This document shows positions 46,185 to 53,472 of a DNA stretch of 64,000 bases, in pieces; position 1 is the first letter of the stretch, and the number at the start of each line of letters is the position of its first letter. Made by a program: the position numbers and the translations under genes. The notes under the pieces were generated by a model. The model saw only the letters and a program-made list of their open reading frames with translations, was not told the DNA's origin and did not search any database. Source of the DNA: Candidatus Latescibacterota bacterium (lineage in GTDB: Bacteria > Latescibacterota > UBA2968 > UBA8231); contig OZ241867.1 of the NCBI GenBank assembly GCA_965203175.1, forward strand, positions 3,648,001 through 3,712,000, in the 5' to 3' direction.

Positions 46185-47348
46185 TTAGCTTCCGGCTTGT
46201 TGCGCGAATTCGCAGATGGTGGTCACGCCGCGGCGGATGTGTTCTTCGGAGGCGGCGATGGAGATGCGCACGTGGTCGCGGCACATCTGGCCGAAGGTGC
46301 TGCCCGGGGCCACGGCCACGCGCTTTTCTTTGAGCAGTCGGATGGCGAATTCGCCGGAGTCCATGCCAGCCGCGGAGATGTCGATCATCAGGTAGATCGC
46401 GCCGCCTGGGGTGTAGCGGTACAAGTTGTATTCTCGCAGGACATCAAGGGCAATGTCGCGGCGGCGCGCATAGGCGCGGCACATGGCGGCTACGTCGTCT
46501 TGCGGGCCATCGAGCGCGTCGGCTGACGCGAGTTGGGAAAATCCCGTGCCACACGAGATAAACGGCTCTTGGAGCTTGGTAGCTAGTTCGATGTACTCGG
46601 GATTGGCACGGGTGAAGCCGACTCGGTAGCCGGTCATGGCATAGCTTTTGGACATGCCGGAGACGATGATGGCGCGTCCGTCCGCATCGTGCGGCAGCGC
46701 GCTCTGATGCGGTTGATCGAAGACGATCTGGCCGTAGATCTCGTCGGACAGCACCCACAAATCATGGCGCTGGGCCAAGTCCATGAGTTGGCGCATCAGG
46801 GCCTCGTCGTACACTTGGCCGGTGGGGTTAGAGGGCGTGCAGAGGAGGAGGAGCTTGGTGCGGGGGCTGACTAGGCGGTCGATTTCGTCGAGGTCGGGCA
46901 GAAAGTGGTTTTTCGCCCGCAGATTGTAAAAGACGGGTTGTCCGTGGACGATGGAGACGGCCATCTCGTAGTTGGGCCAGCCTGGGTCGGGTAACAGGAC
47001 CTCGTCGCCCGGTTCGAGCAGGGCAAGGAAAGTGGTCGCCACGCTCATGACGGCTCCAGGGGTGACGAGGATGTTTTCGCTGGTGGTGGACACGCCGGTG
47101 CGGCGCTCAAAGTAGCGGGCTGCGGCCGCGCGCAACGCATCGACTCCGGCGTTGGGGACGTACTTGGTGTGGCCGGCGCGCGCGTAGCGGCAGGTGGCTT
47201 CGACAATGGACTCTGGGGTGGCAAAATCGGGTTGCCCGACTTCGAGGTGGATGACCTCGCCCGTCTTTTCGACGGCCCAAGCCAAATCCATGATCTCGCG
47301 GATGCCCGAGCGGGGAATAGACGCGGGGATGCGGGCAAAAGGCTTCAT
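46185..47348 (-). CDS. PLP-dependent class I/II aminotransferase
   Basis: GQPDF, PSNPTG, SDEIY, SKSYAMTGYRVG. Confidence 0.92.
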   Translation of the reverse strand: MKPFARIPASIPRSGIREIMDLAWAVEKTGEVIHLEVGQPDFATPESIVEATCRYARAGHTKYVPNAGVDALRAAAARYFERRTGVSTTSENILVTPGAVMSVATTFLALLEPGDEVLLPDPGWPNYEMAVSIVHGQPVFYNLRAKNHFLPDLDEIDRLVSPRTKLLLLCTPSNPTGQVYDEALMRQLMDLAQRHDLWVLSDEIYGQIVFDQPHQSALPHDADGRAIIVSGMSKSYAMTGYRVGFTRANPEYIELATKLQEPFISCGTGFSQLASADALDGPQDDVAAMCRAYARRRDIALDVLREYNLYRYTPGGAIYLMIDISAAGMDSGEFAIRLLKEKRVAVAPGSTFGQMCRDHVRISIAASEEHIRRGVTTICEFAQQAGS

Positions 47349-48142
47349 CGGAGATGAATGCCCGGGCCGGTCGCGCCGATCATCTGCACGGTGTTGTAGA
47401 TGGAGACCGGTGTCGAGGCCCCGGTGACTCCGGTGATTCCCTCGCTGCGCGCAACCTTGAGGTCGAGGCCCGGGCCTTGGGCGTGGATTTCGACGATGGC
47501 TTCGCTCCACTCCGGGCTTACCAGCAGCAGCGAGTGCGTGCGGTCAAAGCCGATGCCGGCGTAGGCGATGGCCGCGTGGGTATTGACGTTGCGCGGGAAG
47601 AGTGGACAGATGCCGCGCGTCGGGCCGTCGTAGAGAACCGTTTCTTCTTTGATGTCGTCGGGATCGAGGCCGGCGGCCGCGCAATCGACGTTGTGCGGGG
47701 GCTTTTTCATCACCACATCGACGGACTCCCACACGTCGCGGTTTTCCAACAGCGCGTCCATGCCGACTACGCCTCCGTGCGGGACGAAGGCGCGGGTGCC
47801 AGCGCGGCGGGTCGTCTCCTCAATGGTGGTTTCGACGGCTCGGTCGGCGAGGGCGGTCACTGAGATGAACATGTAGTTGGTTTTTTCGAGAATCGTCTGG
47901 CCCCATTGGCGGGTGACGTCTGGATGGGCCATCTCGACGACGAGGTCGGGCTGCCGCGATTCAAAGTCGCTCAAGTCCGCTAGGCAGAGGTCGGCGGGGA
48001 GGTTTTGGACGGCCGCGGCCATTTGATCGTGGACGAAGACGACCTCCATGCCGTTGTCTGCGTCAGCGTCTATCATCTTGTGGACGACTTGGCCGATCTG
48101 GCCGTAGCCGATTAGGCCGATGCGGGTCGATTGTTGGCGCAT
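47345..48142 (-). CDS. Aspartate dehydrogenase-like (NadX/DUF108) oxidoreductase
   Basis: GLIGYGQIG, PDLVVEMAHP, GGVVGMD, FPRNVN. Confidence 0.82.
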   Translation of the reverse strand: MRQQSTRIGLIGYGQIGQVVHKMIDADADNGMEVVFVHDQMAAAVQNLPADLCLADLSDFESRQPDLVVEMAHPDVTRQWGQTILEKTNYMFISVTALADRAVETTIEETTRRAGTRAFVPHGGVVGMDALLENRDVWESVDVVMKKPPHNVDCAAAGLDPDDIKEETVLYDGPTRGICPLFPRNVNTHAAIAYAGIGFDRTHSLLLVSPEWSEAIVEIHAQGPGLDLKVARSEGITGVTGASTPVSIYNTVQMIGATGPGIHLR

Positions 48143-48295
48143 GATTTGGCTCCTCAAAACGGGGTGAAAGCAGAAGTAGCGAATATATGCACTGGCCGGG
48201 GATATGGCGAACAAAGGGCGCGTTTTGGCTGGCAGGAAAGGTACCCGCCGCCATTGTTGAGAAGCGCAGCGTAGCGACGGCGGACAAGCGGCCTC

Positions 48296-49312
48296 TCAAT
48301 CCAGCCAATCGACGACCATCCCGACGATATTCCCATCCCGCTCTCGCTTAATGCGCTCGAACATCGCCGGCATCTCGGCGCACCCTATTCGATGGGTAAT
48401 GCAGTGTTCCCATTTGAGCACTCCCATCGCCATGTTCTTGATTACAGCGCGGCGGCAGGGCTGCCAGCCGTCATCGCAGGGAAAGAACATCTGTAGCCGC
48501 TTGCCGTGTGGCGTAGGAAAGTCCAAGGCGATCGGATCGTCCCCGTAGTGGCCCTGCCAGACGAAAGAGCCAAACCGCCGACAGAGGGCAATCGCCGGAT
48601 CGATGCACTGCGGGTGTCCGGTACACTCGAATACTACATCGGCACCTTCGGGCGCGAGCTCTCCTACTACAGCGGCCACGTCCTGCTTTTTGCCGTTGAT
48701 TGCACAATCCGCTCCCAGCGCCTTGGCGACTGCCAGCGGTTTTTCATCAATGTCCACTGCCACCACCACGCACCCCCGCTGTGCACAAGCTGCCACCACC
48801 CCTAAGCCAATCATCCCCACCCCGTGCACCACCACCGTATCTCCCATCCGCGGATTGGCCATATCGACGCCGTAGAGCCCCACGGCCGGCATCACAAACA
48901 AACTCGCCACATCCATCCCCGCTCCGGGCACCATCTTGGCCACGCCATGCGTGGTATTGGGCCGAGTTACGATGCGGCTGCAATGCCCCCCGGAAACGCA
49001 CCCAACTTCCGTCCCGTCGGCCAGTCGCATCGCGTCATTGCCGCGAAAATACACTTCGTCGCCGACCGCAAAATTGTCGATATCGGCCCCGACAGCTTCT
49101 ATGGTGCCCGTGCCCTGATAGCCGGTGCACAACGGAAAGGGGTTGCGGTTCATTTTGCTGATCTTGCCGCTGATCAGTCCGAACTCGGTGCCGATACTGA
49201 CCCCGGTGAAATGGGTGCGGATCGCGACTTGGTCGGGGGCGGGATCGTTCAGTACGACCTTAGTCAGCGCGAAATTTTGCTGCTCGTCGCAGATGAGCGC
49301 TTTGGCATCCAT
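48296..49312 (-). CDS. Zinc-binding (MDR) alcohol dehydrogenase family protein
   Basis: SIGTE, GYQGTG, GVGMIG, DVVFECTG. Confidence 0.88.
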   Translation of the reverse strand: MDAKALICDEQQNFALTKVVLNDPAPDQVAIRTHFTGVSIGTEFGLISGKISKMNRNPFPLCTGYQGTGTIEAVGADIDNFAVGDEVYFRGNDAMRLADGTEVGCVSGGHCSRIVTRPNTTHGVAKMVPGAGMDVASLFVMPAVGLYGVDMANPRMGDTVVVHGVGMIGLGVVAACAQRGCVVVAVDIDEKPLAVAKALGADCAINGKKQDVAAVVGELAPEGADVVFECTGHPQCIDPAIALCRRFGSFVWQGHYGDDPIALDFPTPHGKRLQMFFPCDDGWQPCRRAVIKNMAMGVLKWEHCITHRIGCAEMPAMFERIKRERDGNIVGMVVDWLD

Positions 49313-49335
49313 GAAAATCCTTTCGGGTGGTTAAT

Positions 49336-51804
49336 TTATTTTCTTTCGGCGATTTTGCAGACCCAGATGCTGATTTCGTAGAGCAGGAGCAGGGGCAGGG
49401 CCATGAGGAGCTGGGAGACTGGGTCGGGCGGCGTGAAGATCGCGCCGAGGACGAAGATGCCGATGATGGCATAGCGGCGGATACGGCGCATCCGCGCGGC
49501 AGTTAGCACCCCGACCTTGGCCAAAAAAAGCGACAGCACGGGCATCTCAAAGACGATGCCAAAACCGGCGATCAGCCGCAGCACAAAGCCGATGTACTCG
49601 TCGGCCGCCCATTGCGAGGTCATGTCGGGCGGTTCTAGCGCGAGGAAAAAGCGCAACCCGAGCGGGAGGACGATGTAATAGGCGATCAGCGCGCCAATCG
49701 AGAAGCAGAGGACGCTCAGCGAGATGATGGGCAGCGTGAGCCGTTTCTCGCGCTGCAAAAGCCCTGGGGCGACAAAGCGCCAGGCTTGGTAGAAGATGAC
49801 CGGCAGCGCCAACAGCAGCCCGCCGACAAAGGCGATTTGCAGGCTGATGAAGAAGTAAGTCATGGGTCGGAGGGCTTGCAGGCGGCGCGCTGGGGGCAGG
49901 TCGGGGATGGGCGCGTCCGGTTCGGGCGCAGCATCGGGTTGGTCCAACCACTGGCTCACTAGTTTTTTGACCGCCAGCACCACGCCCGAGGATTGCTGGC
50001 TCTCCAAGCTGAGGACGGCCTCTTCGTACGGACGGGTCAAGATCTGCATAATCGAGTCGGAGAAGGCGAAGCAAATTACCGCGCCCACGACGAGCGCGGC
50101 TAGGGCCTTGAGAATGCGCCAGCGGAGTTCTTCGAGATGGTCGAGAAAGGGCATGTTGGCTTCTCGGGGTGAGTCTGGGGCGTGGGAGGCTTCTATGTCG
50201 TGATCAACTTCTGGATCATGGTCAGCTTCTATGTCGTGATGAGTTTCCGGTTCGTGGTCGGCAGCCGCTGGCTCGCGGGCGGGTCGCGGTTTGCGGAAAC
50301 GGGCGACAAAAGCGATCAAGACGATCAGCAGGCAGTTCCAGGCGAAGAGGTCGCCGTGCCGAGTGTAAAAGGTCGTGGGTTGGCCGACTGGCACGGTGGC
50401 AACTGCGACTGCGGGCGTGAAGAGATCGGTCGCCTCGTAGGTGCGGCCAAATGGGTCGATAAACAGGGAAATGCCGGTGGTGGCGGAGCGGGCTATGGCT
50501 GTGCGGTTTTCAACGGCGCGCATGGCGTTGATGAGTGCGTGTTGATAGGGGCCCGCGCTGCGGCCAAACCACGAGTCATTGGTGATGTTGACCAACACGC
50601 GCGCCCCAGCCGCCACGTGCTGGCGCACCAGATCGGGAAAGATGGACTCAAAGCAGATGAGCACGGCAAAGGGATGCCGGGGATGGGCAAAAACCGCGTG
50701 CTCTGTGCCGCGCGCGAATTCCGCTGGGCCTAGGTCGCCGGTCAGGCGGGTCCAGTCGATGTCGCGCAGCAGGGGGATGGCGTCGCGGTAGGGCGTCCGC
50801 TCGCCAAAGGGCACCAAGTGCATCTTGGCGTACGAGGGCAGGGTGGTGGCCCCGGGTTGGACGAAGAAGGCCGCGTTGTAGTTCGCGTGCGGCGCGCCGG
50901 TCAGCAAGGGGATGCCCAGCTCCTCGACGAGCGCTTGGATGTGGCCCTGGCAACTGGCCCGGCGCACGGGATCGCACGGCACGGCAGTCTCGGGCCAAAC
51001 CAACAGCTCGGGATTGCGCTTGGCTGCTTGGCGCGAGAGGGTGGCAAGAGCTGAGAAAGTGCGCTCCAGCCCGTTGGGACCCCATTTATCGACGTACGTA
51101 GTGTTCGGTTGGATCAGACCGATGCGCAGGCTCTCGGTCGGGACGGCGGTCGCCATAGCGCTCTGAGCGTGGACCCAAGGCAAGAGATAGCCCAAGGCAA
51201 CGCCCGCGAGAAAGACGCGCCGCTCGACGAGCGCCAAGTACAATAACGCGTTGAGGCCGACGACCCAGCAGGAGACGCCAAAGACGCCGGTCCAGGTGGC
51301 GTACTGGATGAAGTGGGGCAGGGCCGCTTGGCTGTGCCCCAGCAAGAGCCAGGGAAAACCCAACTCCCCGAGCGAGAGCAGATATTCCTGACCGGTCCAC
51401 AACAAAGGCAGCAGTGCGAGTGCCTTCGCGCCCCACCGCGCGGCGAGCACGTTGAACAGCCCGGTACAGAGACCGGTAAAAAGGCCCAAATAAGCGGCCA
51501 TTAGCCCGGTACCTGCGACGACGGCGGGCCCGCCGCCTTGAGTATAGGCCACCCAGTACAGGGATAGCAGATTCCAGACCAAGCCGCTGATCCAGCCCGC
51601 GGCAAAGCCGGCTTTGAAGCCGCGGCCTTTTAGCGCGAGCAGCAAAGGCACCAGCGCACAATGGGCCCAGAGCGGATGAAAGAGAAAGGCGAGGGGGTGA
51701 TCGGGGTGGCTGGGAAAGGCCAGCGAGAGCAAGGCCCCGCTCAGTGCGGCCAGCAGCAGGCGGTAAAGCGGGGTTAGGACCAGAACAAAGCGCGGGTTAG
51801 ACAT
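49336..51804 (-). CDS. lnt-tatC: Fusion: apolipoprotein N-acyltransferase (Lnt) + twin-arginine translocase subunit TatC
   Basis: Lnt triad motifs WPETA, KMHLVPFGE, ICFESIF plus TNDSWFG. In frame, from ATG 50154: MPFLDHLEELR, FVAPGL, FEMP, TPPDPVSQ. Confidence 0.9.
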   Translation of the reverse strand: MSNPRFVLVLTPLYRLLLAALSGALLSLAFPSHPDHPLAFLFHPLWAHCALVPLLLALKGRGFKAGFAAGWISGLVWNLLSLYWVAYTQGGGPAVVAGTGLMAAYLGLFTGLCTGLFNVLAARWGAKALALLPLLWTGQEYLLSLGELGFPWLLLGHSQAALPHFIQYATWTGVFGVSCWVVGLNALLYLALVERRVFLAGVALGYLLPWVHAQSAMATAVPTESLRIGLIQPNTTYVDKWGPNGLERTFSALATLSRQAAKRNPELLVWPETAVPCDPVRRASCQGHIQALVEELGIPLLTGAPHANYNAAFFVQPGATTLPSYAKMHLVPFGERTPYRDAIPLLRDIDWTRLTGDLGPAEFARGTEHAVFAHPRHPFAVLICFESIFPDLVRQHVAAGARVLVNITNDSWFGRSAGPYQHALINAMRAVENRTAIARSATTGISLFIDPFGRTYEATDLFTPAVAVATVPVGQPTTFYTRHGDLFAWNCLLIVLIAFVARFRKPRPAREPAAADHEPETHHDIEADHDPEVDHDIEASHAPDSPREANMPFLDHLEELRWRILKALAALVVGAVICFAFSDSIMQILTRPYEEAVLSLESQQSSGVVLAVKKLVSQWLDQPDAAPEPDAPIPDLPPARRLQALRPMTYFFISLQIAFVGGLLLALPVIFYQAWRFVAPGLLQREKRLTLPIISLSVLCFSIGALIAYYIVLPLGLRFFLALEPPDMTSQWAADEYIGFVLRLIAGFGIVFEMPVLSLFLAKVGVLTAARMRRIRRYAIIGIFVLGAIFTPPDPVSQLLMALPLLLLYEISIWVCKIAERK
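50189..50260. repeat. 36-bp tandem duplication encoding the His/Asp-rich Lnt-TatC linker
   Basis: GCTTCTATGTCGTGAT at 50189 and 50225. Encodes DHEPET-HHDIEA-DHDPEV-DHDIEA. Confidence 0.8.
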
Positions 51805-51976
51805 CGGCAGTGGGGGGTAATGCGCAAAAATATAGGAGGGGGATCGGGGCGGAGCAAGGTGCTGGCACAGATTGTGCTTATACGTCGGTTGCGTCTAGTA
51901 CCCACAGACTCGTGGGAGCTGGGCGCTACATTCGCGTGGTTTTTTTGCTACAGCTTTGCTCAAGGAGGAACGCGCC

Positions 51977-52696
51977 GTGCCAACGCAAACTCAGCCCATT
52001 GACTACGACTTTGCCGCCCGCACTGTGGGCGAGGGGCCGCCCGTCCATCGCGGCGAACTGCCACGAGAGCGGCTCGCGCGCCTGGGGCCGCAGGCGCTCA
52101 AAGACCAAGAGCTGTTGGCCGTGGCCTTGGGGACGGGGTATCGCGGCCGACACGTGATGGACTTGGCCGAGAGCATCCTCGCTGATTATCCAAAGGAATC
52201 GCTGGTGGACATGGACTTAGGGCAATTGAGCCGGATTAAGGGACTGGGCAAGGCCAAGGCCGGGGTCTTGGTCGCGGCGTTTGAACTGGCGCGCCGCGGG
52301 TTGCACAAGGGCTTGGGGGTGCGGCCGGTGATTAGTGCGCCCGGCGACGCGCTGTCCATGCTGTCCGACATCAAGGATCAGCAGCGCGAGCACTTTCTCT
52401 GCTTGTATCTCAACGCCCGCAATCAGGTGATCCACAAGGAGGTCGTGTCCATCGGCAGTCTATCTTCGGCCATCGTGCATCCGCGCGAGGTCTTTCGCAC
52501 GGCTGTAGCGCAGGCTGCGGCCAGCGTGATCTTGGCGCACAACCATCCCTCCGGCGACGTGTCGCCCAGCCAAGACGACATCAACTTGACGCGGCGCTTG
52601 GTGCAGGCCGGCGAAATTATGGGCATTGACGTACTCGACCATCTCATCATCGGCAGCGATGATTTTATCAGCTTGAAGGAGCGCGGATTGATATGA
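51977..52696 (+). CDS. radC: RadC family JAB-domain protein
   Basis: PRERL, GLGKAKA, VHPREVF, HNHPSGD..PS..D, LDHLIIG. GTG start behind AAGGAGG. Confidence 0.93.
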   Translation: MPTQTQPIDYDFAARTVGEGPPVHRGELPRERLARLGPQALKDQELLAVALGTGYRGRHVMDLAESILADYPKESLVDMDLGQLSRIKGLGKAKAGVLVAAFELARRGLHKGLGVRPVISAPGDALSMLSDIKDQQREHFLCLYLNARNQVIHKEVVSIGSLSSAIVHPREVFRTAVAQAAASVILAHNHPSGDVSPSQDDINLTRRLVQAGEIMGIDVLDHLIIGSDDFISLKERGLI

Positions 52697-52773
52697 AGAA
52701 AGAAAATTGTATTTGCCCGGCAAAAGCCTATATTACTGACAAACGCAGCAATTTATACAAGGGTACGCGAGCG

Positions 52774-53472
52774 ATGAAAGACGAAGAAAGTCATCTAATT
52801 CCAGTGTACATTTTCGACATGTACCCCTATCCAGACTCGGAACAGGGTTTGGGCATGCCGCAGAAGTTCTTGGTTTTGCTCAAGGGCACGGAAAACAGCG
52901 TGGTGCCCATCACGATCGGCCACTTCGAGGGCCAAGCCCTCGCCATGGCCCTGCGCAAAATCGCCTTGCCGCGACCCCTGCCGCACGATCTGTTGTGCAA
53001 CCTGCTCAAGCGAATCGACGCCGTGGTCCACAAGCTGGTGGTCCACACCCTCAAAGAGGATGTTTTCCACGCGTACCTGCTGGTCCAAGCCCAAGGCCAG
53101 TCCTTTTACCTCGACTGCCGCCCGAGCGACGGTATGATCGTGGCCACGCTCTTGGGCGTGCCGCTCTTTTTGACCCCAGAGGTCATGGAGGCGGCTGGCC
53201 AACCGCTGGAGCACTCCGACGAGCGCGAAGGGGCTAGCAGCGAACAAGCTGCTGCGCCCGAGGTGGTCCAGGATGCGCCCGCAGAGGACAAAGCGGCTGA
53301 GTGCGAAAGTGCCGCGAATAAGCCGGAGGCGTTCGTGGATCCGCAGACGGGCGAGCCGATAAGCCAGTTGGAACAGCTCAAGGCGCACTTGGACTGGCTC
53401 ATCGCCTGCGAGGCCTACGAGCAGGCAGCCAAGGTCCGCGACCGCATCAGCGAGCTAGAGTCCGACAGCTGA
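52774..53472 (+). CDS. Bifunctional nuclease family (DUF151) protein with C-terminal UVR domain
   Basis: PITIGHFEG, RPLPHDL, DCRPSD, C-terminal EAYEQAAKVRDRI. Confidence 0.88.
   Translation: MKDEESHLIPVYIFDMYPYPDSEQGLGMPQKFLVLLKGTENSVVPITIGHFEGQALAMALRKIALPRPLPHDLLCNLLKRIDAVVHKLVVHTLKEDVFHAYLLVQAQGQSFYLDCRPSDGMIVATLLGVPLFLTPEVMEAAGQPLEHSDEREGASSEQAAAPEVVQDAPAEDKAAECESAANKPEAFVDPQTGEPISQLEQLKAHLDWLIACEAYEQAAKVRDRISELESDS

Follow-up and report, generated by a model that had tools for sequence, protein, structure and literature searches.

The stretch of DNA considered here, hereafter the window, comprises 64,000 nucleotides (nt) of a Candidatus Latescibacterota genome (assembly GCA_965203175.1, contig OZ241867.1, positions 3,648,001 to 3,712,000), and its subject is a reverse-strand gene in which apolipoprotein N-acyltransferase (Lnt) and the TatC protein of the twin-arginine translocation (Tat) system are encoded together. 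The listing of open reading frames (ORFs) and the translation give a single open frame of 822 amino acids (aa) that begins with ATG and has no stop inside, and the protein finds itself at 100% identity when searched against the genome of the window (G000:C1:3697339-3699804), which is metagenome-assembled and consists of one contig of 6.58 Mb. It is confirmed that this one frame contains Lnt and TatC both in full, from first to last residue (Table 1). An original prediction, made from the letters of the window alone, had described an uninterrupted 822-aa Lnt-TatC frame with an intact Glu-Lys-Cys triad, full TatC motifs and a polar linker, and the ORF, its translation and the domain and structure matches bear out this description throughout.

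Table 1. Features of the lnt-tatC gene, with their positions in the window and the basis of each assignment.
Feature	Residues	Positions	Strand	Basis
Whole lnt-tatC fusion ORF, 822 aa plus stop (stop codon 49336-49338)		49336..51804	-	One open frame
Lnt module, complete to the natural C-terminus of solved E. coli Lnt	1-504	50293..51804	-	TIGR00546
LNT_N membrane domain	22-187	51244..51741	-	PF20154, 97.5 bits, profile 1-159 of 159
Periplasmic CN_hydrolase (nitrilase-fold) domain	229-473	50386..51120	-	PF00795, 99.3 bits, profile 3-248 of 256
Predicted last transmembrane helix of Lnt, chain back to cytoplasm	486-503	50296..50349	-	Hydropathy peak 485-503 and model helix
Linker: KPRPAR, then acidic His-/Pro-rich stretch	505-550	50155..50292	-	Composition and model
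Tandem repeat in linker, encoding DHD(I/P)E(A/V)-type hexapeptides		50189..50259	.	Period 36, 2.0 copies, 82% matches; period 18, 2.8 copies
TatC module, full length	551-822	49339..50154	-	PF00902, TIGR00945, 4b4a_A
ATG of M551, ancestral TatC start, now internal	551	50152..50154	-	M551 aligns with residue 1 of 4b4a_A
Insertion of about 43 residues between TatC alignment blocks 551-594 and 638-822	595-637	49894..50022	-	4b4a_A alignment

The Lnt module matches the NCBIfam lnt equivalog TIGR00546 over profile positions 2-395 of 395 with 316.9 bits against a cut-off of 132.9, and residues 13-505 align with chain residues 11-507 of the solved E. coli Lnt. The triad is encoded on the reverse strand by the codons of E272 (GAG, 50989-50991), K327 (AAG, 50824-50826) and C384 (TGC, 50653-50655), which align with the WPE, NK.HLVPFGE and IC(Y/F)E motifs of solved E. 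coli Lnt chains; we take the corresponding E. coli residues to be E267, K335 and C387. Hydropathy peaks before residue 208 and at 485-503 flank a polar domain of 276 residues, a picture drawn from simple hydropathy, with which the helices of an AlphaFold2 model (built on an alignment of 22 fused proteins) agree. Model confidence (predicted local distance difference test, pLDDT) is mostly 75-95 in this part. The three triad residues and many other Lnt positions are invariant in all 22 aligned fused proteins.

The TatC module is likewise of full length. PF00902 matches residues 555-804 over profile positions 1-208 of 208 (241.5 bits), the NCBIfam tatC equivalog TIGR00945 scores 216.8 bits against a cut-off of 132.7, and residues 551-822 align with residues 1-233 of Aquifex TatC (4b4a_A; E about 7e-45, as for 4hts_A). 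TatC has an N-terminal cytoplasmic helix with an acidic HL.ELR motif that binds the twin-arginine motif, and the N-terminus of the module, MPFLDHLEELRWR, aligns with residues 1-13 of 4b4a_A, where this helix lies. Residues P552-R561 are invariant save for one column in the 22 fused proteins, and the PFLDHLEE.RW motif is invariant in all of them; both modules look functional, because triad and motif are kept in proteins whose overall identity falls to about 42%. Six hydropathy peaks fall between residues 564 and 818, and the model has long helices there at moderate confidence. The insertion at residues 595-637 is present in the family of the window and missing in two further families with fused genes, f2 and f4 (columns of about 756-826 are gapped in their rows), as well as in Aquifex TatC; in the model it is partly helical. 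The exact N-terminal string of the TatC module, MPFLDHLEELRW, recurs in the TatC of L100, L105, L113, L128 and L137 (from records titled Calditrichota, Caldithrix, Eisenbacteria, Gemmatimonadales and Latescibacter anaerobius), and in several of these a further in-frame Met lies upstream and adds a short, charged extension.

The 46 residues of the linker include 14 D/E, 6 H, 7 P and 4 K/R, and residues 505-552 have pLDDT values below 50 and no secondary structure in the model, so the linker is predicted to be disordered. The last Lnt helix comes after the periplasmic nitrilase domain and is followed by RFRKPRPAR and later by the TatC N-terminal helix; as far as simple tools show, this order fits the topology of the original prediction, in which the Lnt C-terminus and the TatC N-terminus both lie in the cytoplasm. 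Among 17 fused members of the genus the stretch preceding the invariant NMPFLDH differs widely both in sequence and in length, and linkers diverge strongly between species, yet they are stop-free, in frame and rich in D, E, H and P in all fused genomes. This argues that the linker is translated and under compositional constraint, although not strongly, because slippage of the 18-nt repeat keeps the frame by itself.

The architecture of CN_hydrolase plus TatC, which the original prediction had proposed to look for in relatives, is widespread among them. Fusions were scored in 168 genomes of the phylum by how long the open frame is in which the PF00902 match lies, with frames of at least 700 aa counted as fused; 162 genomes had a match, and the counts given here refer to the 150 listed matches (16 others are unlisted), 84 of which lie in fused frames. 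The window's own genus (g1) has the fusion in 25 of 29 genomes, one of them cut by the contig end and open from residue 302, and the other four are split. Family f2 is fused throughout (31/31), and so is family f4 in 21 of 22 genomes, the remaining one having a 506-aa frame on a fragmented assembly. Among the other genera of the window's family (f1) only 7 of the 41 listed matches are fused (g21, 2/2; g22, 5/8) and 34 have frames below 500 aa, while the three matches of family f3 are not fused. The other classes have no fusion among 24 listed matches; two long frames there, of 553 aa in G065 (where lnt is on another contig) and 653 aa in G042 (which is without an lnt match), are not Lnt fusions. 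When 40 relatives were searched with the protein itself, 17 genus members matched residues 1-822 in one stop-free frame and two more matched as two pieces in one open frame.

Beyond these genomes, only two of the best 150 matches of a profile-free search of 1.84 billion cluster representatives carry both modules, namely P0038 (in the cluster of the query) and P0122 (785 aa, 45% identical), and among these 150 no fusion was found outside the lineage. The ESM Atlas holds one 53-member cluster with all three Pfam families, and dozens of independently predicted proteins carry all three domains. Titles of the related public records read metagenome-assembled 'Candidatus Latescibacterota' or, in older ones, 'Gemmatimonadetes/Gemmatimonadota bacterium', with no cultured organism among them, and where the sources name the fused proteins they call them only 'apolipoprotein N-acyltransferase'.

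Copy numbers of lnt were counted by a search of the same 168 genomes with the lnt model (E<=1e-30). There is one lnt per genome in 31 of 31 genomes of f2, in 21 of 22 of f4 and in all 34 genomes of other classes with a match, and there are two in all 29 genomes of the window's genus with a match. In the rows of f2 and f4 listed in both searches, lnt and tatC stand side by side with the same frame length (for example 766 aa in G025, 768 in G033, 769 in G077, 798 in G097 and 820 in G040). Because the single lnt and the single tatC share one open frame in these two families, the fusion must, on this gene content, supply both functions there.

In the window's genome the fused gene is the sole TatC match, and one gene of the TatA/B family (TatA_B_E, 74.4 bits) lies about 1.8 Mb away from it. 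Two genes match Lnt above the cut-off, the fusion and a standalone gene of 503 aa (C1:4623975-4625159; locus L002, ORF 1327-2838 +), which shares 36% identity with the fused Lnt across 492 aligned residues and keeps the triad motifs. Two Lgt genes (C1:4250477-4251208, +; 2277552-2278274, -) and one LspA gene (2944484-2944888, -) are also present. Ten TAT_signal_seq matches exceed the curated cut-off, and in seven of them, an unusually large share, the hydrophobic stretch has [G/A/S]-Cys at its end, some 16-26 residues past the twin arginines, a call made by eye and with a loose regular expression rather than with a trained predictor. The seven matches start at C1:105569, 4556716, 4708880, 2562007, 4459118, 4230426 and 3254055; one of them lies in a 41-aa frame and is probably spurious, and one match below the cut-off has a canonical LAGC. 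One Cys-type signal, in a frame of 1029 aa, reads SRRNFLKLMSASLALGGLSSC, and a similar protein occurs in G030 in a frame of 1006 aa. A whole-genome scan for RR.F[LIMFV] gave 54 matches, many of them plainly spurious (internal or very hydrophobic), and these were not used in the counts. When all matches with E<=1 are considered, signals of the [GAS]-Cys type make up 2 of 7 in G025 (fused, sole lnt), 5 of 8 in G030 (tatC alone, lnt elsewhere) and 2 of 9 in G050 (other class, unlinked). Lipoprotein signals of the Tat type thus occur across the phylum, without following the fusion.

The split members of the genus indicate how the fused state may have come about. In L027-L029, which are 68-71% identical, Lnt ends 5-6 residues after its last helix at a TAG or TGA stop that is in frame with tatC, and then follow one codon, an ATG, an acidic stretch of 25-35 residues and the invariant NMPFLDHLEELRWR; G015 has the same single in-frame stop, as seen in the protein search only. 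To judge from these loci, fused and split states within the genus differ by one stop codon. In other split relatives the two genes are adjacent in different frames (L042, L043, L047), overlap (L044) or are separated, with lnt 1.8 kb away (L046); no lnt was found within about 3 kb upstream of tatC in L045 and L048-L050. At 44 TatC-only loci of other lineages no Lnt C-terminus was found in the 300-nt upstream flank, a short flank that excludes immediate adjacency only. It would appear that lnt and tatC were once adjacent on the same strand, with the tatC start two codons past the lnt stop, and that the fusion arose by loss of that single in-frame stop; within this lineage such an event may have happened, or been undone, several times.

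A quick maximum-likelihood tree of 44 Lnt domains (support as SH-aLRT, midpoint root for drawing), to be read with the long branches (the standalone Lnt of G046 and G157) and composition in mind, groups the TatC-linked Lnt with the single-copy Lnt of six other families (SH-aLRT 100). Because of this grouping the TatC-linked gene looks like the original lnt of the lineage and the standalone gene like an addition. The standalone second Lnt of f1 and f3 forms a long-branch clade of its own (SH-aLRT 100), which includes the sole Lnt of G030, and appears to be either an old duplicate or an acquired gene. Fused rows occupy three separate places of the tree, namely f2 plus f4 (sister to the adjacent-split gene of f3), g21 plus part of g22, and part of g1, and this placement implies at least three events of fusion or fission.

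The reading that we favour, and consider probable, is a genuine inherited fusion, that is, one inner-membrane polypeptide with two complete modules that both do their ordinary jobs. The structure of the gene, its conservation, the copy numbers and the occurrence of Tat signals are observed; we infer that a full-length protein of about 90 kDa is made, that both activities are present and that the tether may be beneficial. The N-terminal module would be an apolipoprotein N-acyltransferase with a multi-helix membrane domain and a periplasmic nitrilase fold bearing the Glu-Lys-Cys triad, and the C-terminal module would be TatC, the signal-peptide receptor of a minimal TatA/TatC translocase, the two being connected on the cytoplasmic face by a flexible tether, acidic and rich in His, that changes in length through slippage of its repeats. 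Each module would keep its usual role, and the fusion would ensure that Lnt and the Tat receptor are made in equimolar amounts, inserted together and kept in the same place; Lnt would thus be placed at Tat export sites, where it would serve the Tat-exported lipoproteins that appear to be encoded in the window's genome. Several observations weigh against this reading. Another intact Lnt is encoded in the genome, and the main one is not necessarily the fused copy; AlphaFold2 is only moderately confident on the TatC part (pLDDT 50-78); the fused state toggles among close relatives, and with most of the listed genomes in the rest of the family split (34/41), the covalent tether is clearly dispensable; and, in the four genomes compared, fusion does not go with a higher share of [GAS]-Cys signals than the unlinked state. 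The idea that the fusion accompanies more Tat lipoproteins was dropped, as there was no association in these four genomes. A further point against the favoured reading is the ATG of M551, which is kept in 21 of 22 fused proteins while the position just ahead of it is variable (N, E, P, A, S, T), and this bears directly on the alternatives.

One of these is an assembly or sequencing artefact, in which a stop was lost or a frameshift introduced into a single-contig metagenome-assembled genome, and it gains some footing from the origin of G000 and from the circumstance that the best-matching run, X2, may be the sample from which the window came. Its record 12 (12,553 nt) covers the entire fusion gene with four differences and no gaps. 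Contigs of two further studies, however, cross the linker, X1 record 2 (50140-50415) with no difference and X3 record 18 (50148-50581) with two, so that contigs of three studies span the join, where the original prediction had advised a check of read support, with neither an indel nor a stop; no insertion or deletion is listed on the gene in any of the four runs compared. The same open frame recurs in 24 other genomes of the genus and in 59 listed genomes of other genera and families, besides the independently predicted proteins already mentioned. The combination that the original prediction had named as speaking against a fusion, separate genes in relatives and a stop in the reads, is found in its first half, in the split members of the genus and the rest of the family, and not in its second, since the contigs show no stop. 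The artefact reading is thus already refuted in practice. An RNA run, X17, adds a 995-nt contig of a relative (71 differences; 49352-50288) that crosses the ATG at 50154 by 134 nt, and further contigs of similar depth on the Lnt part; as this run has a small share of words and DNA carry-over is possible, these contigs are not proof of one transcript.

A more serious alternative, which we consider possible though clearly less probable than a working fusion, is that one ORF yields two proteins, TatC being made mainly separately, from the ATG at 50152-50154, which the original prediction had also named, or in other lineages from another in-frame start in the linker, or by proteolysis of the linker, so that ordinary separate Lnt and TatC result. 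The kept methionine speaks for it, being present in 10 of 11 deep fused lineages, and the one lineage with Ile at this position (ATA, L039) has another in-frame ATG 15 codons upstream; purine-rich stretches resembling a Shine-Dalgarno (SD) sequence lie 8-17 nt upstream of the ATG in several fused lineages (ggaggac in L032, gggggagggggag or ggaggagaag in L040 and L041), and a disordered linker would be accessible to proteases. Yet such strings are also ordinary Glu, Asp and Gly codons, and in the window's genus the 24 nt before the ATG (ccccgagaagccaac) are without a good SD match. A simple scan of 47000-52300 with the sigma-70 consensus found no promoter-like site in or near the linker or the internal ATG, which is a weak negative. 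Conservation of M551 alone is not proof of a start, because the downstream Met is kept also in the split members of the genus, whose tatC probably starts upstream, at the ATG two codons past the lnt stop; a Met of this type is also kept in the standalone TatC of other phyla. The linker contains no frameshift or stop in 25 fused genomes of the genus, 31 of f2 and 21 of f4, a point weakened by the 18-nt slippage that keeps the frame. It is, by comparison, very improbable that the Lnt module is no longer an enzyme in G000 and serves only as membrane anchor or assembly scaffold for TatC, with N-acylation left to the standalone Lnt. The latter scores higher in the genome search with TIGR00546 (345.4 against 320 bits) with its triad context intact, and the doubled lnt is general in the genus; the fused Lnt, on the other hand, is far above the cut-off of that model and invariant at the triad and many other positions, it is the copy that groups with the single-copy Lnt of other classes, and it is the sole Lnt of nearly all genomes in f2 and f4.

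The original prediction had gone further and proposed a physical coupling of Tat export to lipoprotein N-acylation, and in that form the proposal is not supported, as the linker is variable and predicted to be disordered, the fused state has been gained or lost several times among close relatives, and the share of Cys-type Tat signals does not go along with fusion in the four genomes compared. In lipoprotein maturation the action of Lnt comes last, once Lgt and signal peptidase II have done theirs (PMC4941574); tethering it to the signal-peptide receptor would therefore not be enough to channel substrates. More tentative than the two-protein alternative, and in our view rather unlikely, is the stronger version of coupling, a Tat translocon with a built-in lipoprotein N-acyltransferase, in which folded Tat-exported lipoproteins are finished and handed on at the exit site. 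Were it so, the acidic tether beside the twin-arginine binding face of TatC may tune the capture of signal peptides, and the lnt-tatC neighbourhood in split relatives would represent the same complex held together non-covalently.

In textbook genomes lnt belongs to a ybeZ-ybeY-corC-lnt cluster and tatC is found with tatA and tatB. Set beside the canonical separate proteins of known structure, Lnt (5vrg, 5n6h, 5xhq, 6nwr, 5n6m; E. coli, P. aeruginosa) and TatC (4b4a, 4hts), the two modules align end to end and keep the motifs, and they differ in being one polypeptide with an acidic linker of 46 residues and the insertion early in TatC. A fusion of Lnt to another partner is on record: the passages of PMC3460810 that deal with it describe Rv2051c (Ppm1) of M. 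tuberculosis as an N-terminal Lnt fused to PPM synthase, which in other mycobacteria and corynebacteria is an adjacent downstream ORF, and its authors take the genetic link as a sign of a shared pathway; for this pair of downstream operon partners the functional link is proven. The protein described here resembles Rv2051c, so far as those passages portray it, in that an N-terminal Lnt has its cytoplasmic C-terminus joined to the product of the next gene and in that relatives have separate adjacent ORFs. It differs in its partner, which in Rv2051c is a soluble or peripheral glycosyltransferase and here is a membrane protein of a translocase with six predicted helices; the Rv2051c fusion has been biochemically tested, and the one described here is known from gene sequences. 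Pfam finds no glycosyltransferase family in the fusion and its C-terminal domain is TatC, so it is an analogue and not a member of the Lnt-PPM synthase group.

Streptomyces offers a second point of comparison, since according to the sections of PMC4941574 on this genus Tat exports about 20% of lipoprotein precursors, two Lnt are used and S. coelicolor has two Lgt. The window's genome is similar to what those sections describe in its doubled set (two Lgt, one Lsp, two Lnt) and in its many Cys-type Tat signals; it differs in that the genes for Tat and for lipoprotein maturation are separate in Streptomyces, with no fusion reported in those sections (PMC4941574). A term search of a 2013 survey of TatC diversity returned neither 'fusion' nor 'fused' in the text that it covered (PMC3827258). 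The literature searched, which took in few subscription journals, contained no published description of an Lnt-TatC fusion, in agreement with the original prediction, whose author knew of no characterised one. The fusion is real, old and recurrent, and it appears to be undescribed.

Lnt and TatC are each well understood, and the textbook picture has nothing that links them. In 52 species of two families, nevertheless, one fused gene provides the sole lnt and the sole tatC. The logic of gene fusion would predict that Tat export and lipoprotein maturation are linked, functionally or physically, as it held true for the mycobacterial Lnt-Ppm1. In a practical sense, annotation as 'apolipoprotein N-acyltransferase' only means that TatC will probably be counted as absent from the Tat systems of such genomes. 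It is also evident that natural TatC can bear a large membrane protein at its N-terminus.

Some further observations concern other long frames and the surroundings of the gene. In family f10 the TatC frames of G052, G054, G055, G061 and G062 have 406-464 aa, longer than plain TatC, and are not Lnt fusions; these, together with the long frames of G042 (653 aa) and G065 (553 aa), may be N-terminal extensions or other fusions. Among the cluster representatives P0237, P0249, P0209, P0151 and P0182 there are other C-terminal fusions of Lnt, with CbiQ (757 aa), SNase (688 aa) and LEA_2 (622 aa), and two Lnt proteins of 826-842 aa whose C-terminal part lacks a Pfam match. No tatA occurs among the neighbouring genes of the fusion. 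A zinc-type alcohol dehydrogenase gene starts 23 nt downstream on the same strand and is followed by an aspartate-dehydrogenase-like gene (47345-49312, -), and upstream, in divergent orientation, lie genes for a RadC-like JAB protein and a bifunctional-nuclease/UVR protein that overlap by 4 nt (51956-53472, +).

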